From NCBI GenBank assembly GCA_964537525.1, contig CAZIAB010000001.1:425-64424 (forward strand): a DNA stretch of 64,000 nucleotides, given 5' to 3'. Position 1 is the stretch's first letter; the number at the start of each line of letters is the position of its first letter. A model generated the notes under the pieces. That model made no database searches and was not told the origin of the DNA. It was given only the letters and a program-made list of their open reading frames with translations. Made by a program: the position numbers and the translations under genes. Source of the stretch: an uncultured archaeon. Lineage in GTDB: Archaea; Aenigmatarchaeota; Aenigmatarchaeia; QMZP01. Of this stretch, positions 3,425-48,300 are shown in pieces.

Positions 3425-3456
3425 TTTATGTTGATGGGGGACCAATAGATAATCAT

Positions 3457-14073: not shown

Positions 14074-14265
14074 GCTTTAATTTGAATTAGCAAGCTTATA
14101 TTAATTGGACATCCCCGGATTCGTGACCGGCAGTGATTGTGTGGCTGGCATGAAAGTGCTTGCCGGGCCGCGGAAGGAAAAAAACAACAATAAAAACGCA
14201 ATGATATAATTTTATTAAGAACAACGGATATAACATTAATAATACAATAATTAACAGTGAAGCCA
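14074..14265. promoter_or_regulatory. AT-rich promoter/leader region upstream of the surface glycoprotein gene
   Basis: Long A/T tract (ggaaggaaaaaaacaacaataaaaacgcaatgatataattttattaag...) with TATA-like elements about 60 nt upstream of the ATG. This is typical of strongly expressed archaeal cell-surface genes. Confidence 0.4.
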
Positions 14266-17200: not shown

Positions 17201-17433
17201 AGACAAAGAGCATAAAAACTCCGAAAATCAAGAAGGAGGAGCCCGAGCCGGAGGCCCCACCGAGATACATAGAGGGGTATGAGAAGCACGGCAGAGAGGA
17301 CTTCCGGTACGGGAAGCAATCGAAAGGGATAATCAAGAAGATAAAGGACAAGTTCAAGAAGAAGAAGCCCCAGAAGGACATGTCAGAGTTCTTCTCATCA
17401 GGCAGCACCGAGAGGATAGTGAGCGATTACTGA
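14266..17433 (+). CDS. cell-surface glycoprotein (S-layer protein candidate): signal peptide, very dense N-x-S/T sequons, C-terminal TM anchor and K-rich cytoplasmic tail
   Basis: MGPVLVRGGKLAVLLLAGLYIAFTVSVLAA signal peptide. Sequons occur throughout (NGTF, NSS, NVTW, NGSQ, NTTY, NTSC...). The C-terminus has a TM helix (IWFWVIIVIVMVIVVGFVAYLF) followed by a basic tail. It lies immediately downstream of aglB. The ORF-track start at 14257 is GTG, so I used the ATG at 14266. Confidence 0.75.
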   Translation: MGPVLVRGGKLAVLLLAGLYIAFTVSVLAATGNIDVTIASTNGTFIGGTVGFTSTTNSSAGNVTWQYHNGSQWVDICTNTTYGTSFSNTSCDVSGIAEAYYNFSAVANITDDNESRSDYLNLTVDNNPPDVDFAANNPTQSNWTNSGVVTFNVTIADNNTQSCIFELNHSAWASAVNYTNSSSGGSCSYRFADLGDGNWTYIAWANDSASNYNSTETRWIVVETEVPSVTVHTPGSTNQSSVPVLFNFTVVDEVAATTNCTVWFNGSQVYNNDSVLDNTPTEFSLASLGRGDQTWKINCSDANYTYASGTTTFGLYPNVAIEDFWWSHSSNNNTAIGDDINATVLVNLTGSFNLTDNFTVRIRLDSGTWYSQNVSNTTLTTESPSLPLTFIDNITVSSAGNHTLTAQLILYESEAGDSSDNTATAYVYAGYVVELANVCYDGTCTYNNINEALVPPGENVTVNVSVQYPNGSYVTSGLSSVNFKVYNRKDSGSVPYNPTWTNSSMGTVQGGGATGHYKFNYIIPDLVWGSNYHNLADAPGRYYLYVNVTNGNYVNPANLDYAFYNISAGYLTISYSIPSAVTDLEGEDYKIAYLNITISNADGTLALQQIQLIEDESDGVEAFTFGTYDGSPDCDSVNITSLANGSTHTTCRMRIKTSSTGDDRWTNVTAVARDANNNFYYYSLKRTFDIDDSYTSGDTDPGTTGGTPSGGDDFNFAVSITDYPAKVYAYPGGSNRTNVTIKNSGDTVLVAKLKVTASGVIDSTTITPVSYSLSPGSSWNFTVDFTMASDAEVGEFTGIFTAYMSTDADTNDAKTFKVVVLATEELAGQINASCRNKTAMVEAMFARFRLINPAAVNDSNYTAVKNLMDKLNSTFMELLAAVDAEDWTTANTLLSSLQADIDNAESALADLELEQTMSWGGSWSGIWFWVIIVIVMVIVVGFVAYLFYPQKKGLGFAPPMQKGGFFDRLNGIFHSAKTKTKSIKTPKIKKEEPEPEAPPRYIEGYEKHGREDFRYGKQSKGIIKKIKDKFKKKKPQKDMSEFFSSGSTERIVSDY

Positions 17434-32415: not shown

Positions 32416-33072
32416 ATGATAAAGAAAGAGAAGATAACGGACTACAGGAACTTCTGGCTCATCTGGCTCAGCTGCGCAGGGAAACCAGACAAGGGAGAAT
32501 CGCTTTTCGGGATACAGAATGCATGGGACATCAAGACAAACTATCTCTATCATCATGAGACCGGTCTCGGAAAGCCCTTGTACGTGCATATGATAAGGAA
32601 AAACTACATCCGCAAGGAAAAGACAAAACTGGTCCCGAATTTTGCCTGGATAAACGAGTACATAAAGGAAATCGTTGGTGAGGGGGTGGGCAATACATGG
32701 TATCCGAGCGTCTTCATCGGCGGGCGGTGGCCGATTGTCCAGAGCTTCATAGAGAAGAACGCGAACGTGCTTTTCAGCATGGAGAACCTGAAAACTCTCT
32801 ATAAGGAAGATAGGAACATACTTGGCGAGTCCGGTCGTCACATCTTTACAGACATTTTCCTTTACGTAATCTTTTCGAACATGATACAATTCTGTAAAAA
32901 ATACCACGCTGACATCGTATTAAGAATCCTTTCTACTTTCATATCAGTGTTCGCAGACAGGGACCTGCTCAATTACATAAGGAAGATGCACAGCCAGATC
33001 GGTGATAACGTACCAGTATTGATATCCAATGAAGCAGAGATGAACAGGCTCATGTACCCATTTAAGTGGTGA
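32416..33072 (+). CDS. hypothetical protein, aromatic-rich (W/Y/F), no recognisable domain
   Basis: 218 aa from the ATG at 32416 (MIKKEKITDYRNFWLIWLSCAGKPDKGE...). The ORF-track start at 32332 is GTG and lies inside the AT-rich tract. The ORF is uninterrupted, but I recognise no homology, so confidence is low. Confidence 0.4.
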   Translation: MIKKEKITDYRNFWLIWLSCAGKPDKGESLFGIQNAWDIKTNYLYHHETGLGKPLYVHMIRKNYIRKEKTKLVPNFAWINEYIKEIVGEGVGNTWYPSVFIGGRWPIVQSFIEKNANVLFSMENLKTLYKEDRNILGESGRHIFTDIFLYVIFSNMIQFCKKYHADIVLRILSTFISVFADRDLLNYIRKMHSQIGDNVPVLISNEAEMNRLMYPFKW

Positions 33073-33263: not shown

Positions 33264-34037
33264 ATGACCAGGATAATAGGCATAGTTTCCGGGAAGGGGG
33301 GAGTCGGTAAGACCACCGTAGCTCTCAACATAGGAACCGTCCTCGCAAAGAAATACAAGAAGGACGTCATAATAGTTGACGGCAACATGACGACATCCCA
33401 CCTCGGTCTGTACATGGGGATGTACTATTATCCAATATCGCTCAACCACGTCCTTTCAGGGGAGGTCGTGATAGACAAGGCAATGTACGACTACAGCATC
33501 CCCGGGGTGAGGATAATACCCGCCTCACTGTCACTGGATGACCTGAAGGGGATGGACGTTTCTGAAATGAAGAAGCACGTAAAGGAACTGTTCGGAAAGG
33601 CCGATTTCGTCATACTCGACGGGGCGCCGGGGTTCGGAAGGGAGGCCATGGCAACCATCAGAGCGTCTGATGAGGTACTCTTCGTGATGACGCCGTTCGT
33701 CCCGCCGCTGATGGACGTCATCAAGTGCTACCAGGTCGCCGAGGAGCTGGGCGTCAGGTCTCTGGGCGTCGTCCTTAACATGACCGGTGAGGGGAGGCAC
33801 GAGCTCGGCAAGCAGGAGGTCGAGCAGCTGATAGAGCTTCCTGTGATATCCATGATACCGAGGGACAAGGAGGTCCTCAGGAGCCTCTCTGCAAAGCTTC
33901 CTGTAACTGACATGAGCCCCAACACCAAATCCAGCAGGGAGCTTGACAGGCTGGCGGCATACATAGCAGGCGAATACTACACCCCGCCCGGGATGGTTTC
34001 AAGGCTCTCTGGCCTGTTCAGAAGGCCAAAGGCCTAA
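33264..34037 (+). CDS. minD: MinD/ParA-family P-loop ATPase (archaeal MinD-like)
   Basis: MTRIIGIVSGKGGVGKTTVALNIG... with a deviant Walker A (GKGGVGKT) and a Walker B region (FVILDGAPG). About 257 aa with no DNA-binding extension. A GGTGG ribosome-binding site lies 7 nt upstream. Start moved from the ORF-track start (33171) to the ATG at 33264. Confidence 0.85.
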   Translation: MTRIIGIVSGKGGVGKTTVALNIGTVLAKKYKKDVIIVDGNMTTSHLGLYMGMYYYPISLNHVLSGEVVIDKAMYDYSIPGVRIIPASLSLDDLKGMDVSEMKKHVKELFGKADFVILDGAPGFGREAMATIRASDEVLFVMTPFVPPLMDVIKCYQVAEELGVRSLGVVLNMTGEGRHELGKQEVEQLIELPVISMIPRDKEVLRSLSAKLPVTDMSPNTKSSRELDRLAAYIAGEYYTPPGMVSRLSGLFRRPKA

Positions 34038-34241: not shown

Positions 34242-34790
34242 ATGCTGATGGGCATGGCAGGTGATATAGGATCCACTATAAGGAAGAACTCGATTTCTGT
34301 AATCGTGATGCCGAACACGGCCTATAACGAGACCCTGAAGGACATAGTGAGCGCTGCGCTGGATAAGCACGGCTCGCTCTGTTACATATCGCTCAACAAG
34401 CCATACAACAGCGTGATGACATATCTGAAGAACAAGGGGATTAGTTCTGAGAACATAATATTCATAGACGCGGTGACGAAAAAGCCAGAATCCGATTCAG
34501 ACCAGGTGATATACGTTTCTTCGCCGACAGCACTGACAGAGATTAACATAACCATGAACAAGGTCCTCGAGGCAGGCGGGATAAAGGCCGTCCTCATAGA
34601 TTCCATATCGACGCTTCTGCTCTACACAGAGGAATCGGTCGTCCTGAAGTTCGTGCATTCAATCGTCTCGAAGATGAGGAGCGACAGCAATGACTGCATA
34701 ATGGCTGCCATAGAGGACGAATCCACAAGAGAACTTATAGATGACATGTCAATGTTCGTTGACGAGATTCTGGAGCTGGGCAGGAAATGA
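34242..34790 (+). CDS. inactivated KaiC/RecA-like domain protein (P-loop-less KaiC-like; probably the family catalogued as DUF835)
   Basis: 182 aa. It aligns to the RecA/KaiC core (LCYISLNKPYNSVMTYLKNKGISSENIIFIDA ... KAVLIDSISTLLLY ... KFVHSIVSKMRSDSNDCIMAA), but the Walker A position reads VIVMPNTAYNE with no GxxxxGK[TS]. It is a clear paralog of the ORF at 44715-45332. Confidence 0.6.
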   Translation: MLMGMAGDIGSTIRKNSISVIVMPNTAYNETLKDIVSAALDKHGSLCYISLNKPYNSVMTYLKNKGISSENIIFIDAVTKKPESDSDQVIYVSSPTALTEINITMNKVLEAGGIKAVLIDSISTLLLYTEESVVLKFVHSIVSKMRSDSNDCIMAAIEDESTRELIDDMSMFVDEILELGRK

Positions 34791-35701
34791 ATCCAGTAAA
34801 AGGCAAGACCGGAGGGTCAGGGGCCTCAGAGAAACCCGGGGAACCGGAGATAATCAAATCAATAGTCCTGGATACGATATCAGAGCTAATTATATATCAG
34901 GACACTGAGATGAGGATACTCTGGGTGAACAAGGCTGCTGCGGAGTCAGTGAAGAAGAATCCAGGGGAGCTTGCAGGGAAGCACTGCTACGAGGTCTGGC
35001 CCGGGCACAATAAACCCTGCGTTGGTTGTCCTATCATGAAATCACTGAAGAGCGGGAAGCAGGAAACAGGTGAGGTGACCACCCCTGATGGGAGGGTCTG
35101 GATTATCAGGGGATATCCTGTAATCGAAAACGGGAAGATTGTGAACATGGTGGAAATCGTGCTCGAGATGACCGAGCAGAGGAAGATAGAAGAGAGATAC
35201 AGGAGCCTGGTCGAGCTTGCTCCTGACGGTATAATCAGCGCGGACACGAAAGGGAACATCATTACGTGCAACGATGCCTTTGCAGAGCTCTCTGGCTACA
35301 GGAAGGATGAAATTGCCGGGAAGAATTTCGTGAATCTCCCGACGCTTAGAAAGAGGGACCTGCCAAGGTACATCAAGCTCTTTGCTTCTGTCGTTCGCGG
35401 GAAAAGGCCCGGGCCGTTTGAGTTCGAGTGGGTCCATAAGGACGGCTCTGTCAGGATGGGCGACATCCGCATCGGGGTATTGAAGAAGGACGGGAAGATA
35501 ACAGGCATCCAGGCAGTCATCAGGGACGTTACGAACAGGAAGAAGGCAGAGGAGAATGTTAGCAAGAGAACAGAGGAACTGGAGAGGATAAACAAGCTCT
35601 CCATCGGAAGGGAAGTCAAGATGTCAGAACTCAAGAAAAGGCTAGGGAGGCTTGAGGCTCTGCTGAAGAAGCACGGGATTAGTGAGAAGGATGTGGATTA
35701 G
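34787..35701 (+). CDS. double-PAS-domain signalling protein with a C-terminal coiled-coil
   Basis: Two PAS-like segments (ISELIIYQDTEMRILWVNKAAAE... and APDGIISADTKGNIITCNDAFAELSGYRKDEIAGKNF...) followed by a helical K/E-rich tail. The first PAS carries an HCYEVWPGHNKPCVGCP Cys cluster. The start overlaps the upstream stop (ATGA). Confidence 0.75.
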   Translation: MNPVKGKTGGSGASEKPGEPEIIKSIVLDTISELIIYQDTEMRILWVNKAAAESVKKNPGELAGKHCYEVWPGHNKPCVGCPIMKSLKSGKQETGEVTTPDGRVWIIRGYPVIENGKIVNMVEIVLEMTEQRKIEERYRSLVELAPDGIISADTKGNIITCNDAFAELSGYRKDEIAGKNFVNLPTLRKRDLPRYIKLFASVVRGKRPGPFEFEWVHKDGSVRMGDIRIGVLKKDGKITGIQAVIRDVTNRKKAEENVSKRTEELERINKLSIGREVKMSELKKRLGRLEALLKKHGISEKDVD

Positions 35702-35703
35702 GG

Positions 35704-38700
35704 ATGAACGTCTACAACCTTTTGCCTCTGGTTGCTTTTTCTTCAAACATTGCGCTTGCCCTTTACATACTGTACAGGAATCCCGGGGACAGGCTGAACA
35801 GGATATTCAGCATCGTGCTTTTCTCGGTGGCGGTCTGGTCAATCGGAGAATTTCTATCCTTCACGTCAGCAACGCCTGAGATGTCCGTCCAGCTTTATAC
35901 GATTGCGTGGTCAGGCTCATTGCTGGTTCCGGGCGTGCTGCTGCATTTCTTCCTGGAGTTCACAGGGAGCAGTATAATTAAAAGGAAAAGGAACATACCT
36001 CTTCTTTACCTGCCATATGCGTTCTTCCAGTGCATGGTGATTTTCATGCCAGGCCTCCTGGCGGAATCTGCAAGCGCCACATACTGGGGATACGGATTCG
36101 TGCGCGGGATTCTTTACGTCCCTGTCGTGTTATACCTGCTGGGTTATACGATTGCAGGGATCCTTGCATGCTACAGGTTCTATCTCAAATCCGCAGGCAG
36201 GGTGAGGAATCAGGCAAGGCTCCTCATAATTTCCATGGTCTTCTCGCTGATAGGTGGCATCATAACCGATGTCTTCATGCTGAACGTGGGGTTCGCGGCG
36301 TTCCCGCCCCTGACAACGACATTCTCGACCTTCACTGGGGCGATAATAGCCTATGCAATAGTCAGGCACGGGCTCATGTCTCCCATGAGTTTCAGCATAC
36401 GGAGGAAGACTGCCACGGTCTTTTTGCTGTTCATCATAGCCTTCTGTGCTTTCACGTTTTCCCTGGAGAGCATCTTCTCAGCGAGCGTTGTAGAGGTCCA
36501 GGCCAGGGAGCACCTTGAAACGATAACCCAAATCAAGACGAACTGGATTGATTCTTACATGGGTGACAGGGAGAGCGACATCAAACTCCTTGCATCATCA
36601 TCATCTGTCAGACAGGCATTCAACGGGAAACTTGGCATAGAGATCCAGCTCGCGAAGGACAGCATAAAGCAGAAAGCGATTGAAGTTGCTGGCCAGGTCG
36701 ACGATTACATCAGCAGCCATCCCGGCATGACGGTCGGGGAGCTCCAGAACGACCCGGCGTTCCAGGAGATTGCGGTCCAGCAGGTCGGGGAGACAGGATA
36801 CACGGCACTCACTGATTATGATACCCTGATATGCAGGTTCCATAAGAACCCCGACCTCGTTGACGTTGATTTGCATTCCTTTGCTGAAAGCCTTCCCGGG
36901 TTCTGGTCTGTAATGTCAGAGACAGAAGGAGGAAATGAAGCAGAGGGCTTCTATGACTGGGAAGAGCCTGACGGCAGCATGAAGGAGAAATATATGTATA
37001 TCACGATTCCCATGAGGAGAACAGCCGACGGTGTGGGGGGGCTGAGCGTTGCGGCAACGACCTATCTTGAGGAGTATGAATCCACGATGAAGCTGGCAAA
37101 GGAGTATGAGGATTATTTCCTTGGTTTCATGGAGAACTATGATTATCGTGAGATGTTCCTGATAAGTGCGGGTGGCGAGGTCTGGTGGGCAGCAAGAGAA
37201 AAGAGCGGAATTGGGAAGGACCTTGATGAAGAGCCTTACAACCAAACGGCGCTTGCACGCGTATACAGGGAATCCAGGAACGAGGGCAGGGCTTTCTATG
37301 ACTATGAAATTGATGTGACGGGCGAGGCGTCATTCTTTATTTCTTTTCCCGTTTACATAGAGGACAGGCTCGCTGGGATAATCGTCCTGCAGACAGGGAC
37401 GGAAGACATTGACAGCATCCTGGAGGACAGGACAGGCCTCGGGGAAACCGGGGAAAGCTATCTCGTGGGTGCGGATTACCTCATGAGGTCAAACTCGAGG
37501 TTCCATGAGGAAAGCACGATACTCAGGCTGAGGGTTGATACGGATAACGCAAAGGACTGCTTCCTTCATAAAACCCTTCGTGAAGAAGAAATCGGGGAAA
37601 TGCACGGGGAGATAAAGATAACCAGCAACTACATGGGAACGAGCGTCCTTGGGACGCATGAATACATACCTGAAATGGATTTGTGCCTCCTCGTTGAAAT
37701 CAGCGAGTCAGAGTTGTTCGCTCCCATAAGCGAGATGCAGCAGGGCTTGTTGATATACTTCATCATCATCGTGGTTCTGGGTGCGTTGGTTTCTATTCTC
37801 GTATCCAGCTCTATAACGAAACCCATAATCCGGCTAAGGGATGCCGTGGTTGAGATTGGCAGGGGAAAGCTCAATACCAGGATACTGGTCAATACAGGGG
37901 ACGAGATAGGCGAACTTGCATCTGCTTTCAGGAAGATGACAGGTAACCTGAGGGATTCGCGCAGGGAGATAGAGAAGCGTGCCGAGGAACTGGAGAAGAG
38001 CGTCCATGAGAGGACTGAGCAACTTGACGTGAGGGTCAAGGAACTTACGGACACCAAGACTGCCATCCTTAACATGATGGAGGACGTTGACAAGACCAAC
38101 ATGGAACTGATGAATACCCAGAAGCAGCTGAAGAAGAGCCTTTCTGAGCTGGAGGAGGTCGATGTCAAGAAGAACCAGTTCATCTCCATAGCCGCCCATG
38201 AGCTGAAGACCCCGCTCACGTCGATACATGGATTCTCACAGCTCCTGCTAAACAAGAATGTCGCAGAAAAGGTTGATATGAGGAACAAATACCTCAAGAT
38301 AATGGACCACGAAACCAGGAGGCTTGCAAACCTCGTTGATGACATCCTTGACCTATCCAGGATAGACATGGGGACAATGAAATTCAGCCTTGATAACGTT
38401 GACATGAACGAACTGCTTGACAGCATCAGGAAAGAGGCGGACGTGCTCATAAAGAACAAGGGCCTCCAGCCTGAATATGAGATAAGCAAGAAACTGCCGA
38501 AGGTAAGGACAGACCCTGAGAAGCTGACGCAGGTGCTGATAAACCTGATAAACAATGCCGCGAAATATACCCCAAAGGGCAAGGTAACGTTAAAGGCCTT
38601 GAGGGAAGACCACAGCGTGCGTTTCGTCATAAAGGATACCGGCATAGGGATACCGAAAAACAAGCAGAAAAAGATATTCGAGAGGTTCTACCAGATTGAT

Positions 38701-38955
38701 TCTTCATACACGAGGAGCGCCGGGGGAACCGGTTTGGGCCTTGCACTCTGCAAGGAGTTCATAGAGATGCTTGGCGGTGAGATATGGGTGAACAGCGAAC
38801 CTGGAAAGGGGAGCGAGTTCCATGTCCTACTGCCAATCAGGGCCACCCTCAAGAAGGGTGCCAAGGAGAGAGCGAGAGAAAGCCTAATGAAGGCCAAGAT
38901 TGTTTTGCCTGATGCGGAAAAAGCTACCTTGAAACAGCCCACTCAATCCTCCTGA
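35704..38955 (+). CDS. sensor histidine kinase: N-terminal 7-8 TM domain, large extracytoplasmic Cache-like sensor domain, TM, HAMP, coiled-coil, HisKA, HATPase_c
   Basis: 1083 aa. About 8 TM helices in residues 1-250, a roughly 450-aa extracytoplasmic region, a TM helix (LLIYFIIIVVLGALVSILV), a HAMP-like region (IRLRDAVVEIGRGKLNTRI...GDEIGELASAFRKM), the H-box FISIAAHELKTPLTSI, an N-box LINLINNAAKYT and G-boxes DTGIGI / GGTGLGLALC. No receiver domain. Confidence 0.85.
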   Translation: MNVYNLLPLVAFSSNIALALYILYRNPGDRLNRIFSIVLFSVAVWSIGEFLSFTSATPEMSVQLYTIAWSGSLLVPGVLLHFFLEFTGSSIIKRKRNIPLLYLPYAFFQCMVIFMPGLLAESASATYWGYGFVRGILYVPVVLYLLGYTIAGILACYRFYLKSAGRVRNQARLLIISMVFSLIGGIITDVFMLNVGFAAFPPLTTTFSTFTGAIIAYAIVRHGLMSPMSFSIRRKTATVFLLFIIAFCAFTFSLESIFSASVVEVQAREHLETITQIKTNWIDSYMGDRESDIKLLASSSSVRQAFNGKLGIEIQLAKDSIKQKAIEVAGQVDDYISSHPGMTVGELQNDPAFQEIAVQQVGETGYTALTDYDTLICRFHKNPDLVDVDLHSFAESLPGFWSVMSETEGGNEAEGFYDWEEPDGSMKEKYMYITIPMRRTADGVGGLSVAATTYLEEYESTMKLAKEYEDYFLGFMENYDYREMFLISAGGEVWWAAREKSGIGKDLDEEPYNQTALARVYRESRNEGRAFYDYEIDVTGEASFFISFPVYIEDRLAGIIVLQTGTEDIDSILEDRTGLGETGESYLVGADYLMRSNSRFHEESTILRLRVDTDNAKDCFLHKTLREEEIGEMHGEIKITSNYMGTSVLGTHEYIPEMDLCLLVEISESELFAPISEMQQGLLIYFIIIVVLGALVSILVSSSITKPIIRLRDAVVEIGRGKLNTRILVNTGDEIGELASAFRKMTGNLRDSRREIEKRAEELEKSVHERTEQLDVRVKELTDTKTAILNMMEDVDKTNMELMNTQKQLKKSLSELEEVDVKKNQFISIAAHELKTPLTSIHGFSQLLLNKNVAEKVDMRNKYLKIMDHETRRLANLVDDILDLSRIDMGTMKFSLDNVDMNELLDSIRKEADVLIKNKGLQPEYEISKKLPKVRTDPEKLTQVLINLINNAAKYTPKGKVTLKALREDHSVRFVIKDTGIGIPKNKQKKIFERFYQIDSSYTRSAGGTGLGLALCKEFIEMLGGEIWVNSEPGKGSEFHVLLPIRATLKKGAKERARESLMKAKIVLPDAEKATLKQPTQSS

Positions 38956-39301
38956 TGAGGTCATTGTTGTCAAAGGGTTTCGTGATGTAGTCAAGAATCA
39001 TCAGTTTCTTGAGGGTGCGGTAATTGATTTCCTTTGATTTCAGTATGGTAAGGAAGACTATCTTCGTTTTCCTGGTTTTCGGGGTTTCCCTTATCTTCTT
39101 CGCGACATCGGTTCCCTTCATACCGGGCATCATTATGTCAAGCAGTAGAAGGTCTGGCTTCTCATTCTCGATAATTTCGAGGGCTTCCCTGCCATTGCCC
39201 GCAGTCACTACGTCAAAGCCCTTTGAATCGAGCAGGTCCCTTATCAGAATTAACAGATTCTCTTCATCATCAACGACCATTATCTTTTTCTTCTTGGGCA
39301 T
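38924..39301 (-). CDS. stand-alone CheY-like response-regulator receiver domain protein
   Basis: 125 aa. IMVVDDE, the phospho-acceptor D in LLLLDIMMPG, and T/K positions (FLTILKS...ITKPF). No output domain. Its 3' end overlaps the histidine-kinase 3' end by about 30 nt in a convergent arrangement. Confidence 0.85.
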   Translation of the reverse strand: MPKKKKIMVVDDEENLLILIRDLLDSKGFDVVTAGNGREALEIIENEKPDLLLLDIMMPGMKGTDVAKKIRETPKTRKTKIVFLTILKSKEINYRTLKKLMILDYITKPFDNNDLIRRIEWAVSR

Positions 39302-39326
39302 GTCATGTCCTGAGATGCAGAAGATG

Positions 39327-39698
39327 TCATCCGATAATCTTCTTGATTCTCTTCAGTAAATCGGCGTTGTCAAATGGTTTCGTGATGTAATCCGAGACTC
39401 CCATCTTCTTCAGCGTGTCTTTTCCGGATTCAGAGAACTTTGCAACGGTCAGGAAGGCGACTTTCAGGTCCTTTGTCCCGGGGTCTGCCCTTATCTTCTC
39501 GCAGACCTCCCTGCCGCTCATCCCGGGCATCATCATGTCGAGGAGGACCAGGTCAGGCTTGGTCTTCTTCAGTTTCTCCAGGGCTTCCCTGCCATTGCTG
39601 ACCGCTATCACGTTATATCCCTCGGCCCCCAGGATTGCCTTTATCAGCTCAAGAAGTGAAGACTCGTCATCCACTGCCATTATGGTCTTTGACATCAT
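39327..39698 (-). CDS. stand-alone CheY-like response-regulator receiver domain protein (tandem paralog)
   Basis: 123 aa. IMAVDDE, LVLLDMMMPG, FLTVAKF...ITKPF. Paralogous to the adjacent receiver. Confidence 0.85.
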   Translation of the reverse strand: MMSKTIMAVDDESSLLELIKAILGAEGYNVIAVSNGREALEKLKKTKPDLVLLDMMMPGMSGREVCEKIRADPGTKDLKVAFLTVAKFSESGKDTLKKMGVSDYITKPFDNADLLKRIKKIIG

Positions 39699-39791
39699 TT
39701 ATATTTGTTTATGTTTTATTTAAATCTGAATTCCGGCGTCTGTTTTATAAACCGGTCCGCCAATATATTAATTACTATAGTAGTGGTGATT
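39699..39791. promoter_or_regulatory. AT-rich divergent promoter region between the CheY pair (-) and the KaiC-like gene (+)
   Basis: ttttatttaaat and gttttataaacc TATA-like boxes. A GGTGA ribosome-binding site lies 5 nt before the KaiC ATG. Confidence 0.4.
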
Positions 39792-40646
39792 ATGGCAGGG
39801 GTCAAGGCAAAGATAGACATCTCCAAGATAAAGAAGGCCGTGAAGAAGGAATTCTCAGAGAAGGGAAGCAAGACAGAGATTGTTACAAAGGTCGGAAGGG
39901 AATACATAAAGACCGGCATAAAGGGTTTCGATGCGCTGTTCGAGATAGGGATACCCAGGGGAGCGATAGTTCTGGTTGCAGGTGGGCCCGGATCTGGGAA
40001 GACGACGCTCTGCCTTCACATGATAATAAATGCCGCGAGGGCAGGAAAGAAATGCCTTTACATGTCATTCGAGGAGTCAGAGGAGAGGCTCTTCCAGCAC
40101 ATGGAGGACTTCGGCTGGGTCCCGAAGGCGGTGGACAAGAAGAACCTCCTGATAAGAAGGTTCAGCTCCTTCGACATATCAAAGGCCATAGACGCCATGC
40201 TGGCTAAACAGAAAGGCGAGCTCATGATAGACTTCGAACCCGTCATCCTTCCGAAGGGCTTTGTCCCGGACTTCGTGATAGTGGATTCTGTCAGCTCTAT
40301 ATCGTCCAACTTCATCGGCAGGGAGGAGAGCTACAGATCATACATAGAACATTTATTCAGGTTCTTCGAGGATAAGGGCTCAACGACATTCATGATATCA
40401 GAGACCGACCAGAACACGGTCTCCTACAGCAGGACCGGCGTCGAGGAATTCCTCGCAGACGGCGTCGTGGCCCTCTACAACATAAGGAGGGGTGACGTGA
40501 GGGAGATGGCCCTTGAAGTGATAAAGATGAGAGGGACCAAGCACAAGAAGAAGCTGGTTGCGACAAAGGTGGTTGGCGGCGTCGGGATAGAGGTGTATCC
40601 GGAGCAGGAAGTGTTCGGTGCGACAGAGGCAAGGCAGATAGGATAG
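39792..40646 (+). CDS. single-domain KaiC/RadA-like ATPase (RecA superfamily) with intact Walker A and B motifs
   Basis: About 284 aa. GIKGFDALFEIGIPRGAIVLVAGGPGSGKTTLCLHMI (Walker A), CLYMSFEESEERL, DFVIVDSVSS (Walker B region), TTFMISE. Start moved from the ORF-track start (39705) to the ATG at 39792. Confidence 0.8.
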   Translation: MAGVKAKIDISKIKKAVKKEFSEKGSKTEIVTKVGREYIKTGIKGFDALFEIGIPRGAIVLVAGGPGSGKTTLCLHMIINAARAGKKCLYMSFEESEERLFQHMEDFGWVPKAVDKKNLLIRRFSSFDISKAIDAMLAKQKGELMIDFEPVILPKGFVPDFVIVDSVSSISSNFIGREESYRSYIEHLFRFFEDKGSTTFMISETDQNTVSYSRTGVEEFLADGVVALYNIRRGDVREMALEVIKMRGTKHKKKLVATKVVGGVGIEVYPEQEVFGATEARQIG

Positions 40647-40659
40647 CCGTTAAATTATT

Positions 40660-43600
40660 ATGGTATTTCATACTCGCAGATTGCTGGCATTCGCTTTTCT
40701 GTTTTTGGCAGTAACACCTGGTCTGGTGATGGCTGCCCCGAGCGTGAGCCTGTCCTCGCCCGATGACGGAAATGTATCGTTGTCCGGGAGCGTGGCGTTT
40801 GAGTGCAATGCCACGGCAGACTCGCTGACAGAACTCGCTCTGTATACAGACATCATCGGGGGCTGGTCAGCATATGAGACTGCATATTACGGACAACTGT
40901 CCGAGGATTCCAACACGCTTCTGTTGTGCAACTTCACCGGATATGCGTGCAGCGATTCCACGGGAACGGATTCCGGGACATCCATAACGGCGGGCAAGAT
41001 AGGGGGCGGCGTCTTCGTGGACGGGACCGACACGCTAACCTTTTCCAGTGCAGGCAACTTCGACGTGCTGGAGGGCTCGATTGAGATGTGGGTGAAGCCA
41101 GAGGGCAACCTGAGCGGGCAGCACTGGCTCTTCATCGTTGCGCAGAGCCCGAGCGTGCACACGACAGAGTACAGGCTATGGATAGCGGATGACGTCCTGT
41201 ATTTCAGGTTCATGGACGAATACGAATCCCCGTCCAGCGTGTGGAGGGACGTTTCCTCGTGGAATCCCGGGGAGTGGCATCATGTTGCAGCTACGTGGAA
41301 AGCAAGCACGGATTCGATGGAACTTTATGTTGACTCTAGCACGGGCGGGAATTCCTATAATATCGGCGGTATGGGTTACATGGGCTCCATGGGTGACACC
41401 ATGTACGTGGGAAGCTACAAACTGGGTTCAGGCCAGTTCAACGGAACGATGGATGAGTTCAGGATAAGCGATTACGAGAAGAGCGCATCAGAGATAAACG
41501 ATTCCTACATGACCGGCCTGACCAACGTGACCTCCGCCGGCGGGCAATGGACCGTCAGCGGGATAAGCGACGGGACGTATGTGTGGAACTGCATGGCAAC
41601 TGACAACGCATCGGTTACTGGATGGAACGACACGAACAGGACCCTCTACGTGGACGCGTCCAGCCCGCCTGTCGTAAATTCAGTTACAACGGTCCCGAAC
41701 ACGACTGACGGGCTTGACCCGGGCATAGACATAAACGTCACCGCGAACATAACGGACGTGAGCGGAGTCAATGCGAGCATACTCATGTACAGGAGGTCAG
41801 GGACGTCTACGTGGAGCAACGTGACCATGAACAACATAACCCCAGACATCTGGAACGGTTCCTTCCCGGTTCCCCTGCCGCCGGGTACGTGGGAATACGC
41901 GATATGGTACAACGACAGCAACTCTCACTCGAACCAGACAGCCGTAATGAACGTCTCCGCTGAGTATGATTATTCCTGGTCATTATCGCCCTCTTCCATG
42001 GGAACCACTTACATTGTCGCAGGAGAGACCGGAACTCTCGGGGATCTGCATATAACGAACACGGGCGAATATCCGCTGAATTTCAACATATCGTCCACGT
42101 GGGGGGACACATCATTCAACGTATCAGACCCGGACAGCTTTGACATAGGAGTAGGCCAGTCGAGGACCATAAACGTGACGGTGACGGCCTCGGTGACTCC
42201 TTACGAATATGCAGTCAATATAACGATAGGCTGCACGACTCCGGGAGCGAGCACGACCTCCTCTGTGGTGGATGCCTCCCTGATATCTTACGTGGGCGGG
42301 CCCCAGCTCACGGTGACTATAACGAACCATCCCGTTTCCGTCCTTCAGAGCCAGTCGAACATCGTGTTCAATGCGACCGTGAAGAACATAGGTAACGAGA
42401 CTGCTAACGGCACGTGGATAAACTGGACGTTCCCGGCGGGGTGGTCAAACTCCTCGGGGAACGTGACATACTTTGCAGGGAACATAGCGGCAGGCTCCAC
42501 GTTCTACTCGAACATCGTCATGTACACCTCGTCTTCTGCTGCGGCAGGGGTGTCGCAGGTATACCTGAACGCGAGCTCCAACCAGACCTATAACGGCTCT
42601 GACAGCACCCTGATCGGGATATCCTGCAGCAGCTCTGACAGCGTCTGCGGTTCGGGGTGCACCTACCTGACCGATTCCAACTGCGCTGCCCCGGGGGGCG
42701 ACGGGGGGAGTTCCGGCACCTCGGGCACCGTGGTCTCGGGCGGGGGCAGGGCATCCTATTACAGGCTTGACCTGAAGCTTCCCGCAAGGCTTGACCTTTT
42801 CAGGGGAGACATAGAGGACGTCGAGATAGTCGTGATGAACACCAACAACGTCGGGTTTTCAGAGCTAACCCTTTCATCAGGGGGTTACAGGTCAACCCTG
42901 ATATCCCTGTATTCGGGCATCCAGAACGGGACGATTGAGGCGAACTCTGAGATGCCGTTCACGCTGCGCATAAACGTTCCCGGCTACATGGCATACGGGG
43001 AGTATCCTGTAACAATCACTGCCACTGCATACGGGGGCCTGAACACGACCGTTGAGGGCTCTGCAACAATAAGGCTGCTCGTCCACAGCGTTGATGAGAA
43101 CGAAACAATCTCACTTTTCAGGGAAGCACAGAAGGCAATCGGGATAATGAACAGCGCGGGCATCCCAACCAACAGGACGTCAAGGATTCTCGAAGCCGCG
43201 TCCTCATACCTCGATGACTGGAATTATGACAAGGTAAAGGAACTTTCCCTGCTCATACTGGGATACAAGAACAGCTCGCTTGCCGCGAGGGCAATGCTCG
43301 GGGAGCTGGACGAGGGTATCTGGTATGCAGAGAGGTATGGCCTTTCTTTCCCTGAAACCACCAAGCTCAAGTCGCTTGCGTATTCGGCGCTCGCAAGGGA
43401 GGATTTCCAGAGGGCCGAAGATAGGTCTGAATCCGCGCTCCTCACGCTCGCGGTGGAGACGGGCACGGTTCTCCCGCTATTCATGTTCATTGAGAACAAC
43501 TGGCTCCTTATAATCCTCTCCTTTGCCGGGCTATCTGTCATCATGTTCTTTGGCAGGAGGGTGGTTATCCTGTCCCTAATAGAAAGGAGAATAAAGCGCC

Positions 43601-44718
43601 TCTCCGAAGAGAACGGAATCCTTGAGAAGCTGATTTCAGTTTCCAGCTCTGATTACTTCATAGAGAAGAGCATAAGCAAGGGGGAGTATAAGAAGAGTAT
43701 GGATGAATACAGCAGGAAATACTCAGTAAACAAGAGGGAGGAGATACGGCTCAGAGTCAGGAAGATGCTCCTCAAGTCGCGCGGCAGGAAGGCTGCGGAG
43801 GGAAAGAGGATGGAGATGTTCAGGGAACTGATGGCCGAGACGCAGAACAGGTACTTCAGGGAAAGGAAGATTTCCAGGACAGTATACAATTCAACGATAA
43901 GGGAGATATCCAGGGAGATTGCTGACCTGGAGAACAGGAAAGGTGTTAGCACCTCGCTGAAGGCTGCCGTTTCCATAATGATCATCCTGTTGCTTGTGCC
44001 CATGGGGGTTGGTGCAACTCCGCAGCAGGACGCTCTCGGTGCGATAAATGCAGCGGAGGGTCAGATTTCAGACATGGAATCCCTGGGCCTTGGAACGGAA
44101 TATGCGAACGGCACCCTGAACGAGGCCAGGTTCCTATACAACGAGGGCTATTACGCCGGGGCGCAGTCCCTTGCAGAAGAGGTAGGAGATATAAAGGAAT
44201 CTGCTATAAGGGTGGACGGGCTGGTTGATGAAGTGGAGTCAAAGCTCTACGACGTCGGCGCGCAGGGAATAGACGTGTCCGGTCCGTGGGGGCTCTTCTA
44301 CCAGGCAATGGATTCGCTGGAAATGGAGGATTTCGTCACGGCAGAATCGCTTCTTGAGGAGGCATATGAAAAGCTGGACGAGCTCGAGGAGCGCGCCTCC
44401 CTCGAGAGGGCACTCGGAAGCAGCGACACCATGGGCATCGTGGTGAACAACTGGGAATGGTTTTTCTTTTTCCCGGGGCTGTTCGTTTTATGCTTCCTCA
44501 TTACGCGCAAGCTGACATCCAAGGCATTCATCAGGAAGAAGATTAAAAGGCTGGAGAGGGAGAGGGATGACATATCGGGCATGATAAAGGAGGCCCAGAA
44601 AATGTATTTCCAGGATGACAGCCTCGGAAAGATAGAGTATGAGAGCAGGGTGGACAGGTACAATGAGAGACTTGTAGACGCTAAGAAGAACCTGACCGCC
44701 ATGAGGAAGAGGCTTTAG
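40660..44718 (+). CDS. giant surface protein (1352 aa): signal peptide, N-terminal ConA-like/LamG lectin-fold domain, long N-x-S/T-rich beta-rich region, then a duplicated [TM helix + cytoplasmic SHOCT-like coiled-coil] module at the C-terminus
   Basis: Signal peptide MVFHTRRLLAFAFLFLAVTPGLVMA|AP. LamG-like core (GSIEMWVKP...WHHVAATW...LYVDS...GTMDEFRI). Dense sequons. Near the C-terminus, TM(LLIILSFAGLSVIMFF)-IKRLSEENGILEKL...SISKGEYKKSMDEYSRKY is followed by a second TM(WEWFFFFPGLFVLCFLI)-IKRLERERDDISGMIKE...LGKIEYESRVDRYNERL. Confidence 0.75.
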   Translation: MVFHTRRLLAFAFLFLAVTPGLVMAAPSVSLSSPDDGNVSLSGSVAFECNATADSLTELALYTDIIGGWSAYETAYYGQLSEDSNTLLLCNFTGYACSDSTGTDSGTSITAGKIGGGVFVDGTDTLTFSSAGNFDVLEGSIEMWVKPEGNLSGQHWLFIVAQSPSVHTTEYRLWIADDVLYFRFMDEYESPSSVWRDVSSWNPGEWHHVAATWKASTDSMELYVDSSTGGNSYNIGGMGYMGSMGDTMYVGSYKLGSGQFNGTMDEFRISDYEKSASEINDSYMTGLTNVTSAGGQWTVSGISDGTYVWNCMATDNASVTGWNDTNRTLYVDASSPPVVNSVTTVPNTTDGLDPGIDINVTANITDVSGVNASILMYRRSGTSTWSNVTMNNITPDIWNGSFPVPLPPGTWEYAIWYNDSNSHSNQTAVMNVSAEYDYSWSLSPSSMGTTYIVAGETGTLGDLHITNTGEYPLNFNISSTWGDTSFNVSDPDSFDIGVGQSRTINVTVTASVTPYEYAVNITIGCTTPGASTTSSVVDASLISYVGGPQLTVTITNHPVSVLQSQSNIVFNATVKNIGNETANGTWINWTFPAGWSNSSGNVTYFAGNIAAGSTFYSNIVMYTSSSAAAGVSQVYLNASSNQTYNGSDSTLIGISCSSSDSVCGSGCTYLTDSNCAAPGGDGGSSGTSGTVVSGGGRASYYRLDLKLPARLDLFRGDIEDVEIVVMNTNNVGFSELTLSSGGYRSTLISLYSGIQNGTIEANSEMPFTLRINVPGYMAYGEYPVTITATAYGGLNTTVEGSATIRLLVHSVDENETISLFREAQKAIGIMNSAGIPTNRTSRILEAASSYLDDWNYDKVKELSLLILGYKNSSLAARAMLGELDEGIWYAERYGLSFPETTKLKSLAYSALAREDFQRAEDRSESALLTLAVETGTVLPLFMFIENNWLLIILSFAGLSVIMFFGRRVVILSLIERRIKRLSEENGILEKLISVSSSDYFIEKSISKGEYKKSMDEYSRKYSVNKREEIRLRVRKMLLKSRGRKAAEGKRMEMFRELMAETQNRYFRERKISRTVYNSTIREISREIADLENRKGVSTSLKAAVSIMIILLLVPMGVGATPQQDALGAINAAEGQISDMESLGLGTEYANGTLNEARFLYNEGYYAGAQSLAEEVGDIKESAIRVDGLVDEVESKLYDVGAQGIDVSGPWGLFYQAMDSLEMEDFVTAESLLEEAYEKLDELEERASLERALGSSDTMGIVVNNWEWFFFFPGLFVLCFLITRKLTSKAFIRKKIKRLERERDDISGMIKEAQKMYFQDDSLGKIEYESRVDRYNERLVDAKKNLTAMRKRL

Positions 44719-45332
44719 CCGGGCGGGAGCTCGGGGGTGTCGAGACCGGACAGGCCGTAAGGCCAGACAGCACCTGAATCGTGGCTTATCTTCCCTGGCT
44801 CATCGGGGGGTTTTCCTTCCCTGTCCATGGCCGTAAGGTCCTTTGTTTCATCAGCGAACATGACTAAATCGTCTATGAATTCATCAACGTTGACTTCGGA
44901 AACGGTATCCCTCGAAATCATGTAAACAATCTTGCCGGGATTCCCTGCCTTGACGCTGTTGGTGAACCTGAGCACGGATGATGGCTCATGGTATCTGAGG
45001 AGGCAGGATATGTCATCGAACACGAAGGCGTTGCACCTCTTCTTCATCCTGAGTATTGCCCCGGAAATCTCATCAATCGCAGAGGGTGAGGATATGTATA
45101 AGCATCTCTCTGTGGATTCCTGGCTCGAATAGTGGCTGCTGAGGGTGTCTATGAAGCAAAGACTCTTTGCGTCAATGCCGTTCTTTTTCAGTGTTTTCAT
45201 TGCAGAAGAAACAGTATCACTGAGGCACACGTAGCATATCCTATGGTTCCTGAGCTTCTTGATGATGTTCGTTTTCTTGAAATGCTCATCAGACCTTATG
45301 AGGAAAATGAAGAGCCCGTTCTTATCAAACAT
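44715..45332 (-). CDS. inactivated KaiC/RecA-like domain protein, paralog 2 (no P-loop)
   Basis: 205 aa. ICYVCLSDTVSSAMKTLKKNGIDAKSLCFIDT...CLYISSPSAIDEISGAILRMKKRCNAFVFDDISCLLRY...KIVYMISRD aligns to the ORF at 34242 and to the KaiC core, but lacks Walker A. It ends in a P/G-rich tail. Convergent with the 1352-aa gene, overlapping it by 4 bp. Confidence 0.55.
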   Translation of the reverse strand: MFDKNGLFIFLIRSDEHFKKTNIIKKLRNHRICYVCLSDTVSSAMKTLKKNGIDAKSLCFIDTLSSHYSSQESTERCLYISSPSAIDEISGAILRMKKRCNAFVFDDISCLLRYHEPSSVLRFTNSVKAGNPGKIVYMISRDTVSEVNVDEFIDDLVMFADETKDLTAMDREGKPPDEPGKISHDSGAVWPYGLSGLDTPELPPG

Positions 45333-45377: not shown

Positions 45378-48300
45378 TTACTTCAGTGCATCCCTTATCT
45401 TCCTGTCAATCTCTCCGACCTTTTCCTCGCTCCTCTTCCTCATGCTCTCGAATGCCTCCTTTGATATTATTCCTGACTTGTACTGGTTCTCAAGGAGCCT
45501 TAGCATCCTCTGGTTCTTCGCCTTCTCTGTCCTCAGAACGTCCACGTCGCTGCTGGGCCTGACGGCTCCTGCAACCTGCCTCGCCTCGGACAGCCTTCCC
45601 TTGAGAAGAATCTTCAGGTTCCTGGTCATCCTCCTCATGAAGATTACCAGGACTGCTATTACCACTGCAAACACTATGATAAGTATGACCCACCATGGAA
45701 GGAAGCCGCGCGACAGTATGTCATCGAGCAGGTCCTCTGCCTCCCTTATGAGCTGCCATGCATTGTATACAGAATCGAGCGCGGCATCGTACAGCTCCTT
45801 CTGGAGGTAGTTCTCGGCGAGCTCTATCTCGTTCTCTATGTCCTTTATGAGGTCTTCCACGGGCGAGACGTCGTACCCCGATGCCTTCGCGCTCTCTGTC
45901 CTTGTCTTGAGCTCCCTGAGCTTGGCCTTGAGCCTGACGAGCTCGAAGTCTATGAGCTCCTTCCTGGAGGTGAAGACGAAGAGTGTGAATACCTTGCTGT
46001 CCTTTGACTGGTTGGAATCCGCGGTTATCATGACCTCGTGCTGCCCGGATGCTATCCCGAAGGGGACGAGTATCTTCATGGTGAAGGTTGCCTCCTCTCC
46101 CGCTGCCAGAGTCCCTATGTTCCTCGGTTCGATGATGAACCAGTTTTCCTCTGTCGAGCGGGCGGTCAACTGGACGTTGGTGGCGGGGGAGTCGCCGGTA
46201 TTCTTGACGAGTATGTTGACGTACCTTATCACACCGACCTCGACACCCACCTCCCTGTCGTACTCTGTTATGTTCAGCCTGGCCTGGCCGCCGCCCCCTC
46301 CGGGCCCTGCCTCCTCTGGCGCGCCTCCCTCCTCTCCGCTCGGCGGGGGCGGGGCAGGTGCCTCGCCTATGACGTCAAAGGTCCCGTTGGCAGTGGCATA
46401 GAGGTTATTGACCGTGTTGTACGTCACCTTCACGTTGAGCGTGTAGGTTCCCGGCGGCTGGCTGGTGAATATGTAGGCGCTGACAGAGGGGTCAGTGCTC
46501 GCATCGAAAGTCTTGTTCTCCCCCGCGCCTATGTTGGCTGAGAAGTGCTGGTAGTCCCAGGTCTGCCCCTGGCCAGAGACCCAGTATTCTATCAGGACGT
46601 CAAGGTTGTCAACGTCGCCCTTGTTCTCGGCGTAAAGCTCGAAGTTGAGGATGTCCCCTGGCTCGACCTCCTTGTTTAGTATGTTGACCCCGACGTCGTA
46701 GGGCCCTCCCAGGGAGACCCTTATGTAATCATAGGCAACCGTGTAATACCCTCCTATGGTGGCATTGAGTATGACGTTGTATACCCCGACCGGTGCCAGG
46801 GGCGGCATGGCATAGTTGTAGGTATAGACTCCCACCGACTCCCTTGTCATGCTCGCCTTCGTGGTGCTGAAGTACGGACTGTTGACGGGGTTCAGCACGT
46901 TCAGGTTTATGCTGTCCGGGTCCGTGAGCATGCCAGAGCTGTCAGTGAACCACATCACGAACTTCATGATGCTGTTCTGGTACCAGAGCGGGTAGATTCT
47001 CATGTCAGCGTGTATGCCGTAGCTCGGCGGGTGGTCGGTCATGGTGAAGGTGTAGTTCTGGGTGCTGTTGACGTAAAAGCCGACCTGCGTCTCGTAATAT
47101 GTGGAGTTTACGAGGACCGTGTAGTTTCCTGCCGGATAGCCGTAGGTGGGGAAGTCGATGTATATCCCCGCGTAATCGTTCCTTATGAAGCCGTCGCTCT
47201 CTGTCAGGTATGACTTGTTGAAGATTGTCTCGTTATCAGGGTTTAGTATCACGACTTCGACGGTGACGTTGCCTATATTCTGCTCGCCTGAAGATTCCTT
47301 TGCCCTGTAATAGACAGAGCCCTGGTATCCCTGGTTGCTGTATTCATCGCTCAGGGTGAACATTATCGGGCTCAGTTTCGTGTATACGTAGAAGGTGTCG
47401 CTTCCTGTCTCATTCTCGCCCAGGTCGTCCTCTGCATACACCCATGCCGTGTAGTTTCCGATGTAGGTGGTGTTGCCCCACGTGGAGGGATAATATGCAT
47501 ACCAGCACGAGGTGCTTCCCGGACCGCTTCCGGTGCATCCCCCCCAGTAAAGCCTGGTCATCGAGACGGTGTTGTTGGTCCCGTCGGGCCTGGTCACCGT
47601 CACGTTGATGGGCATGAGTATCGGGCGGTCGGACTGGGCCGTGACGTTTGAGTATATGAGAACGCTCCCCAGCTGCTCTGCGTAATCGGGTATGACCTCG
47701 ACGTCCACGATGGGCTTTATGTAGGGGCTCAGCAGGATTGTCACGTCGATTTCATCGGGCTCGGCAGAAGCGTTGGTTGCATTTATCGTGTAGTTGGCTG
47801 TCCATGTGCTCTGGCCCGCGATTCCGCTGACGTTGTAGTAGAACGTCAGCTCGTACTCATCATCCGAATCTATGGCGAAGGCCGTGGAACTGACGTTGGT
47901 GTGGTTTACCTCCGCGGGGGTGACGCTGAAATCAATCAGCACGTTTCCTGTATTGTTAACTAGAACCATGCAGGCGACTCCCACGTCAGGGCTCTGGGAG
48001 TGCTCGCAATAGGTCTCATTCACGTACCAGCTGGCGTTGACAGGGACTGTCAGGCTCACGTTGAGCGAGAAGTTCCCGGCGTTGTTCGATGTTATGTTGA
48101 GCGTCCCGTTGTAGGTTCCCGGCGGGTATGCGAAGGGGACGGTGGCATTGAGCAGGATTTCCTGGGACTGGCCTGTGGAGAGGTCGTGCGGGCCTTCTGA
48201 TGAGAGAGTGGCAGATAAGCTCCCGGGACCTGTCAGGTTCAGGGTGACGTTATAGACAACGTCATTCCCTGAAGAGAGGATAGTCACATTGCCGAAGCTG

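Follow-up and report, generated by a model that had tools for sequence, protein, structure and literature searches.

Introduction

KaiC-family ATPases have been proposed to be the chief native signalling hubs in archaea (Makarova, Galperin and Koonin 2017, as cited in PMC5847659), and inactivated KaiC-like domains such as DUF835 and MEDS, for which the term iKaiC is used (Galperin et al. 2018, PMC5847659), have been recorded in archaeal two-component systems as fusions of the types REC-DUF835 and iKaiC-REC (PMC5847659). A KaiC-like protein can also regulate another ATPase without hydrolyzing ATP itself, as ArlH does with ArlI (PMC8978795). Here we analyze a stretch of 64,000 nucleotides (the window) on contig CAZIAB010000001.1 of an uncultured member of the Aenigmatarchaeota, in which the gene for an active-type KaiC lies between the genes for two standalone inactivated KaiC-like proteins, herein termed iKaiC-A and iKaiC-B, together with genes for a sensor kinase, two receivers and giant surface proteins. 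The two are anciently diverged paralogs within a large, mainly DPANN, family of standalone pseudo-ATPases, and we put forward, as the reading that we consider probable, that they are non-catalytic adaptor subunits in a single signalling unit that has the active KaiC at its center. To our knowledge, beyond those of the archaellum and a handful of haloarchaeal examples, archaeal KaiC-like ATPases are almost unstudied.

The two proteins share with the iKaiC class a KaiC-homologous RecA-fold domain in which the ATPase motifs are disrupted, and in both cases the genes occur with those for histidine kinases, receivers, PAS domains and active KaiC ATPases. The REC-iKaiC fusions of other archaea are, moreover, a precedent for coupling between receivers and iKaiCs. 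The proteins of the window differ from that class in being standalone and in belonging to a separate, mainly DPANN, family that Pfam covers in part. An initial annotation, made from the DNA sequence alone, had correctly noted that inactivated KaiC-like domains are known in archaeal signalling, where they are called iKaiC and REC-iKaiC fusions are on record (PMC5847659), but the label that it suggested for them, DUF835 (PF05763), fails for both proteins, as iKaiC-A scores 23.7 bits against a gathering cutoff of 33.1 and iKaiC-B gives no match. The best non-KaiC Pfam matches of iKaiC-A, and of many homologs, are to DUF7504 (PF24336) and DUF7090 (PF23365), two uncharacterized families of the KaiC clan. 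iKaiC-A reaches 25.3 and 23.0 bits, respectively, against cutoffs of 27, and iKaiC-B matches neither, so that membership in DUF7504 was also rejected for the two proteins, although several homologs do pass the DUF7504 cutoff. A full-text literature search returned no mention of DUF7504 and likewise nothing on DPANN, KaiC and giant in combination.

ArlH (FlaH) of the archaellum resembles the iKaiCs in being a single-domain, non-hydrolyzing KaiC-like regulator that binds a partner ATPase, and it is the top Foldseek match of iKaiC-B in the PDB (4yds, E 2e-6). It differs from them in that it keeps its Walker A motif and needs bound ATP, whereas the iKaiCs have no P-loop, and no archaellum (arl) genes were found in the window. 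Membership in the ArlH/FlaH family was rejected on the NCBIfam FlaH model (15.7 bits for iKaiC-A against a cutoff of 194, and no match for iKaiC-B) and on the missing Walker A. The Elongator subcomplex Elp4/5/6 and the RAD51-paralog complexes (BCDX2, Shu) are hetero-oligomers of RecA-fold paralogs in which some nucleotide sites are degenerate. They are among the closest structural matches, four members of the iKaiC family match Pfam Elp5/Iki1, and the logic of Elp4/5/6 resembles that of the recurrent gene trio described below, which encodes one active and two dead proteins; they differ in that there is no membership at the sequence level and in that their biology is tRNA modification and recombination. 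With the cyanobacterial KaiABC system the locus shares an active partner of the KaiC family with Walker A, catalytic glutamates and KMRG, and one distant member of the iKaiC family (P0212) has a sub-threshold KaiB-like domain. In contrast to that system, the KaiC of the window is single-domain, and the window holds no KaiA or KaiB gene and no sign of an oscillator.

Two inactivated paralogs and an active KaiC

The three RecA-like proteins of the locus are encoded as follows.

34242-34790, plus strand: iKaiC-A (open reading frame (ORF) 1), a standalone inactivated KaiC-like protein of 182 amino acids (aa) with a deleted P-loop, its gene immediately preceding those for PAS and the kinase
39792-40646, plus strand: active-type single-domain KaiC ATPase, 284 aa (PF06745, E 1.3e-48)
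44715-45332, minus strand: iKaiC-B (ORF2), another inactivated KaiC-like protein, of 205 aa, encoded at the end of the minus-strand giant-protein operon

BLASTP aligns iKaiC-A with iKaiC-B over 145 aa at 30% identity (E 5e-18), and a profile-profile comparison of their families by hhalign gives a probability of 99.8% and E 2e-27. Neither has a significant match to the intact KaiC in pairwise BLASTP, and they are therefore closer to each other than to KaiC. Homology to the KaiC core is detectable only at the level of profiles or folds: hhalign of the family profile against 71 intact KaiCs from the fetched loci (see below) gives a probability of 93.5% and E 2.3e-7, whereas against the KaiC of the window as a single sequence the match is weak (probability 5.7%). 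iKaiC-A just passes the Pfam KaiC model (26.9 bits, cutoff 26.6) and has sub-threshold matches to DUF7504, DUF835 and DUF7090, while iKaiC-B has no Pfam match at all, and a search of its profile against PDB sequences gave spurious or weak matches only.

Both proteins are predicted to have the RecA/KaiC α/β core fold. The AlphaFold2 (AF2) models, built from alignments of 115-116 sequences, have a mean predicted local distance difference test score (pLDDT) of 90.3 for iKaiC-A and 86.4 for iKaiC-B, with disorder in the latter limited to the last ~35 residues. When searched against the PDB with Foldseek, the iKaiC-A model matched KaiC (E 4e-7), PH0284 (TM-score 0.74), PH0186, RecA and FlaH, and that of iKaiC-B matched KaiC and Elp4/5/6 after FlaH, with RAD51 paralogs also among its best structural neighbors. 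The predicted-disordered C-terminal tail of iKaiC-B (residues ~170-205, encoded at 44715-44820) carries a motif, WPYGxSGFDxPELP, that is present in eight of ten homologs and may be a short docking motif of the iKaiC-B subfamily.

The hhalign alignment pairs residues 12-179 of iKaiC-A with residues 53-228 of KaiC. The active protein has all four of the expected motifs, with Walker A at aa 64, the catalytic glutamates at 92, Walker B at 162 and KMRG at 245, and the first three compare with the inactivated proteins as follows.

Walker A, GGPGSGKT in KaiC: MPNT--AY in iKaiC-A; lost, with a two-residue deletion
Catalytic glutamates, SFEESEE in KaiC: SLNKPYN in iKaiC-A and CLSDTVS in iKaiC-B; lost
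Walker B, VIVDS in KaiC: VLIDS in iKaiC-A; kept

The KMRG motif is the source of the trans-acting Lys/Arg finger in KaiC rings, and this segment is gone from both iKaiCs, the alignment ending before it. With the P-loop, the catalytic glutamates and the KMRG segment all lost, the iKaiCs are predicted neither to hydrolyze ATP in the canonical manner nor to activate the site of a neighboring subunit. The motif GxxxxGK[ST] is absent from iKaiC-A and iKaiC-B and from all iKaiC ORFs in the fetched loci (0/120), and the only two matches to it among the retrieved family proteins (P0124 and P0214) both fall outside the iKaiC domain. In the models, the β1-α1 loop is reduced to 1-2 residues in iKaiC-A and is an acidic RSDE sequence, with an invariant D15, in iKaiC-B. 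Two candidates for a cryptic P-loop in iKaiC-B were rejected: NPGK (aa 131-134) forms a turn from helix to strand and does not lie between β1 and α1, and KKT (aa 19-21) is inside the helix that follows the glycine-free RSDE loop.

These results agree for the most part with the initial annotation. It had assigned a canonical KaiC core with GGPGSGKT to 39792-40646, as is borne out by the PF06745 match and the four motifs, and it had noted that the ORFs at 34242-34790 and 44715-45332 have no GxxxxGK[ST] and are more alike than either is to KaiC, both of which we confirm. Its assertion that they share the KaiC core is upheld by hhalign and Foldseek, pairwise BLASTP giving no significant match. It had made its proposal depend on a RecA fold in structure prediction, which AF2 and Foldseek found for both ORFs, and on there being no P-loop that it had missed, and neither ORF carries one. 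Its account of the losses was correct for Walker A and overlooked the loss of the KMRG segment.

Y48, D76 and D120 (iKaiC-A numbering) are invariant across 116 family members and S123 is nearly so, and they are located at the C-terminal ends of core strands β2 and β3 and of the Walker B strand. The Walker B aspartate itself is D120 in iKaiC-A and D106 in iKaiC-B. Such residues are what would be expected if the iKaiCs were sensors of a small molecule or a non-canonical nucleotide, with a remodelled pocket that binds the ligand and reports to the two-component system, and the fusion of some members to ligand-binding CBS and V4R domains indicates that the family works in sensing contexts. On the other hand, the domain has neither a glycine-rich loop nor a Lys/Thr where the helix begins, the conserved acidic residues D15 and E16 of iKaiC-B occupy the phosphate position, and fusion to separate sensor domains suggests that the iKaiC domain is not itself the sensor. 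We consider a sensor function very unlikely.

Both iKaiCs are under purifying selection. The ratio of nonsynonymous to synonymous substitution rates (dN/dS) relative to the orthologs in the nearest metagenome-assembled genome (MAG), that of locus L013, is 0.115 for iKaiC-A and 0.162 for iKaiC-B, compared with 0.19 for the kinase and 0.038 for KaiC. Because both proteins have lost the C-terminal segment as well as the Walker A loop and the catalytic glutamates, and iKaiC-B has no Pfam match, the two might be taken for decaying, functionless pseudogene remnants of KaiC duplicates. This is next to inconceivable given dN/dS values of 0.12-0.16, reading frames that are intact over hundreds of divergent genomes, family-specific invariant motifs, confidently predicted folds and conserved synteny, and we take the dN/dS values and the conservation to rule it out.

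A large family of standalone pseudo-ATPases

In an exhaustive profile search, 3455 cluster representatives were recovered at E≤1e-3, and 667 at the stricter threshold of E≤1e-30. When genomes, one for each species, were scanned with the iKaiC-A alignment, 205 relatives were found. The great majority come from DPANN MAGs (Aenigmat-, Woese-, Nano-, Iain- and Altiarchaeota), and a small number carry the labels Methanosarcinales, Hadesarchaea or Methanobacteriota. Pfam covers this family in part: at E≤1e-3, the 116 members match KaiC (66), DUF835 (48), DUF7504 (46), DUF7090 (31) and Elp5/Iki1 (4), and the iKaiC-B subfamily has no match. The family has been little described so far, and proteins of the iKaiC-B type, which are at present unlabelled hypotheticals, can now be named.

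Some members are predicted to be fused to other domains, among them a CBS pair (P0228), V4R together with the sub-threshold KaiB-like domain (P0212), a coiled coil (P0125), a sub-threshold SHOCT domain (P0135) and a second iKaiC domain (P0128 and P0139). Judged by these annotations, the repertoire is typical of an adaptor or output module and not of an enzyme. Through P0212 and P0228, both of them metagenomic, the dead-KaiC family is connected with small-molecule sensor domains and with a KaiB-like domain. In eight loci of Iainarchaeota/Diapherotrites (L035, L039, L041, L051, L060, L065, L066 and L078), the iKaiC domain is located inside proteins of 670-800 aa with unannotated flanking regions, and these large proteins adjoin a divergent KaiC of ~400 aa and, in five of the eight, a gene pair in the order KaiC then iKaiC.

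Genomic coupling to KaiC and to two-component genes

The other genes of the locus are as follows, with membrane topology taken from a transmembrane (TM) scan.

33264-34037, plus strand: archaeal MinD ATPase (TIGR01969, 203.5 bits, cutoff 201.75), 205 bp upstream of iKaiC-A
34787-35701, plus strand: cytoplasmic PAS-PAS protein (Pfam PAS_4 and PAS_9)
35704-38955, plus strand: sensor histidine kinase with seven TM segments, an extracellular dCache domain and HAMP, HisKA and HATPase domains (Pfam; TM scan)
38924-39301, minus strand: single-domain receiver (CheY-like) 1 (PF00072, E 9e-28; acceptor Asp in DLLLLD)
39327-39698, minus strand: single-domain receiver (CheY-like) 2, divergent from the KaiC gene (PF00072, E 7e-29; acceptor Asp in DLVLLD)
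40660-44718, plus strand: LamG-domain membrane protein, 1352 aa (Pfam Laminin_G_3 and NEW3; TM scan)
45378-51296, minus strand: surface protein, 1972 aa, immediately upstream of iKaiC-B (Pfam NEW3 and CARDB; TM scan)
51297-53060, minus strand: coiled-coil cytoplasmic protein, 587 aa, with a SHOCT-like C-terminus and zero TM segments in the TM scan
53073-63908, minus strand: giant protein, ≥3611 aa, with an ORF that continues past the window end (Pfam DUF87 and HerA_C; Walker A GSTGAGKT)

All of the gene positions given in the initial annotation were recovered on remapping, and the neighbors that it had named (MinD, PAS, histidine kinase and CheY) are supported by TIGR01969, by the Pfam matches and by the acceptor Asp in both receivers. 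It had placed iKaiC-B at the end of the minus-strand giant-protein operon, in keeping with its location 45 bp downstream of the 1972-aa gene, and iKaiC-A at the head of the plus-strand regulator operon. The latter is true insofar as iKaiC-A directly precedes the PAS and kinase genes, with its stop codon overlapping the start of the PAS gene and the kinase gene beginning 2 bp past the PAS gene, but two further plus-strand genes, MinD and a conserved ORF of 216 aa, precede it, and the operon may therefore begin before iKaiC-A. Around KaiC it had recognized the regulator genes and overlooked that KaiC appears, from the gene spacing, to be co-transcribed with the LamG membrane protein, the gene for which starts 13 bp after KaiC in the window. 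According to the TM scan, the LamG protein combines a signal peptide and ~900 aa of ectodomain with 4-5 TM segments, and it ends in a cytoplasmic tail (aa 1287-1352). The plus-strand kinase gene and the minus-strand gene of receiver 1 converge with their 3' ends overlapping by 32 bp (38924-38955).

The wider context was assessed in 80 fetched loci (designated L), in which ORFs were called and searched with the proteins of the window. The distance from an iKaiC to a KaiC with Walker A is at most 200 bp in 33 of the loci, at most 1 kb in 45 and at most 5 kb in 56. When normalized for available sequence, the density of KaiC is 3.59 per 10 kb within 1 kb and 0.22 at 5-10 kb, a 16-fold enrichment of active KaiC within 1 kb of family members. 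KaiC and two iKaiCs form a same-strand operon with gaps of ≤100 bp in six loci (L015, L028, L040, L054, L056 and L058). In L015 the order is LamG giant, iKaiC, iKaiC and orthologous KaiC, a compact version of the set in the window, and a distant contig of 304 kb has genes for an active KaiC and for two iKaiCs, the second of these overlapping. A LamG homolog lies within 300 bp of the orthologous KaiC in 6 of the 16 loci that carry this KaiC, and in some loci the LamG gene is divided into two genes. In L028 it is the KaiC of the Altiarchaeota trio operon that is divided, into two overlapping ORFs (9205-9920), which may be a frameshift or an assembly error.

A neighbor-joining tree separates clades around the two paralogs. 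Members of the iKaiC-A clade have MinD before them and PAS and kinase genes after them, and those of the iKaiC-B clade are directly followed by a receiver gene. In the lineage of the window, iKaiC-B is instead at the tail of the giant-protein operon, an arrangement kept in contigs where iKaiC-B is 57-82% identical; the 1972-aa gene adjoins iKaiC-B in L004-L011 and the 587-aa gene is kept in L004 and L010. The cluster as such is also preserved in relatives with an iKaiC-B identity of 57-76%. MinD is also upstream of iKaiC-A in L013, L025, L026 and L030, and a PAS gene follows iKaiC-A in many loci of the Aenigmatarchaeota type. In the nearest relative (L004/L013), where iKaiC-A is 90% identical, the PAS-PAS gene is missing and the kinase gene comes directly after iKaiC-A. 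Functional coupling of the iKaiCs to KaiC and to the two-component system is well supported. The locus exemplifies a very large, mostly DPANN, dead-KaiC family that is linked to two-component systems as well as to active KaiC genes, and in which the trio recurs.

The main alternative is an arrangement in which iKaiC-A and iKaiC-B would form a hetero-oligomer of their own, a dimer or an Elp4/5/6-like ring, that acts as a scaffold outside the KaiC ring and binds phosphorylated receivers or the coiled-coil or SHOCT-like tails of the giants, with KaiC being a pathway neighbor. The tandem iKaiC-iKaiC fusions (P0128, P0139) are consistent with this, as are the structural neighbors of iKaiC-B (Elp6, Elp5, Elp4 and RAD51 paralogs), which are non-catalytic subunits of RecA-like hetero-complexes, the coiled-coil (P0125) and SHOCT (P0135) fusions, which echo the proteins encoded beside iKaiC-B, and the absence from the iKaiCs of the KMRG segment, the provider of the trans-acting finger in KaiC rings. 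However, the family has its strongest and most widespread neighbor in the active KaiC, and translational coupling between the two is frequent. In many lineages just one iKaiC accompanies KaiC and the locus has no second paralog, and the SHOCT matches in the window are below the Pfam cutoff (E 0.0016 for the tail of the 1972-aa protein). We regard a separate scaffold as doubtful. A role in anti-phage defence was rejected, as PADLOC gave no match for iKaiC-A, iKaiC-B or MinD and generic P-loop matches only for KaiC and the HerA-like tail of the giant protein.

Proposed signalling unit

We propose that the iKaiCs act as adaptors of the active KaiC, the role that appears most likely because the family almost always adjoins active KaiC genes and sensor genes. 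The proposal is based on the fold, the loss of the catalytic motifs, purifying selection, the size and distribution of the family, its genomic coupling and the recurrence of the trio, as demonstrated above. Specifically, an extracellular ligand would be sensed by the membrane kinase via its dCache domain, and the kinase would then phosphorylate the two receivers, which have no output domain. The iKaiCs would relay the receiver signal, plus inputs from PAS or MinD, to the assembly or ATPase state of KaiC, and KaiC in turn would act on the LamG membrane giant with which it is apparently co-transcribed. iKaiC-B would bring the adjoining giant surface-protein operon into the KaiC-centered unit. 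The relay could involve insertion of the iKaiCs into a mixed KaiC ring and docking of the receivers on that ring, and the course that the signal takes and an influence on the surface proteins are likewise part of what we propose here. The soluble set of KaiC, iKaiC-A, iKaiC-B and the two receivers provides concrete material for a biochemical test of the hub hypothesis, and the locus would offer a first regulatory handle on DPANN giant surface proteins.

Several points weigh against this mechanism. Direct binding of the iKaiCs to KaiC or to the receivers is something that we infer. The tandem iKaiC-iKaiC fusions fit a complex made of iKaiCs only equally well, and the invariant polar residues Y48, D76 and D120 around the former nucleotide pocket could mean that a ligand is bound there, as opposed to a purely adaptor function. 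KaiC is absent from 24 of the 80 loci, although many of these are short contigs, and the tree that defines clades A and B is a neighbor-joining tree without bootstrap. The trios of other loci are compact, but in the window 4-5 kb separates the three RecA-like genes and they are not all on one strand, and the link of iKaiC-B to giant surface proteins is gene order in one lineage.

A more elaborate version of the adaptor mechanism is that the active KaiC and its two dead paralogs form a mixed RecA-fold ring of the Elp4/5/6 type (e.g., 2:2:2) on the cytoplasmic face of the LamG protein. The dCache kinase would switch this ring via the receivers, and the ring would control whether giant surface proteins, possibly a means of host contact in DPANN archaea, are deployed or which conformation they adopt. 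We think it quite unlikely that all of these elements hold together; if they do, the locus encodes a KaiC-based inside-out signalling device for cell-surface giants.

Giant proteins and remainder of the window

The TM scan gives the 1972-aa protein an N-terminal signal or anchor, one C-terminal TM segment and a short cytoplasmic SHOCT-like tail. It shares with the 587-aa protein a terminal motif, SG[IL]IS[KR]EAF, that resembles SHOCT (45381-45680 and 51300-51599, respectively, both on the minus strand), and the tail of the 587-aa protein has no match to the SHOCT model, only weak YqgQ-like and GvpG matches. The giant of at least 3611 aa has a TM segment near aa 3207, after which the last ~380 aa (53076-54233) are a HerA/FtsK-like P-loop ATPase. 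A 778-aa homolog of this part (E 3e-127) is encoded in a Woesearchaeota locus (L069), ~6 kb from a set of KaiC-KaiC and iKaiC genes.

Upstream of MinD and iKaiC-A are two genes for coiled-coil cytoplasmic proteins on the minus strand, of 1773 aa (24285-29606) and 838 aa (29603-32119), and the 216-aa ORF (32422-33072, plus strand), which has no Pfam match. The block of these three genes is kept in L013, L025, L026 and L030, and as the upstream coiled-coil block is conserved, the neighborhood extends past 34242-45332. The extended synteny of the window is common to Aenigmatarchaeota MAGs, and the archaeon is probably a member of the small-celled DPANN group.

The remainder of the window is an ordinary archaeal chromosome, with genes for RuBisCO, diphthamide synthase, HMG-CoA reductase, STT3/AglB, SecDF, PEP (phosphoenolpyruvate) synthase and TIM. 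No tRNA genes or Rfam families were found in the window. A further putative surface protein of 1058 aa (14257-17433, plus strand) has an N-terminal signal or anchor, a C-terminal TM segment and no Pfam match. The RuBisCO large subunit (2021-3424, plus strand) is assumed from the archaeal context to be of form III, and the next ORF after it (3421-3990) has a pyruvate:ferredoxin oxidoreductase (POR) domain.

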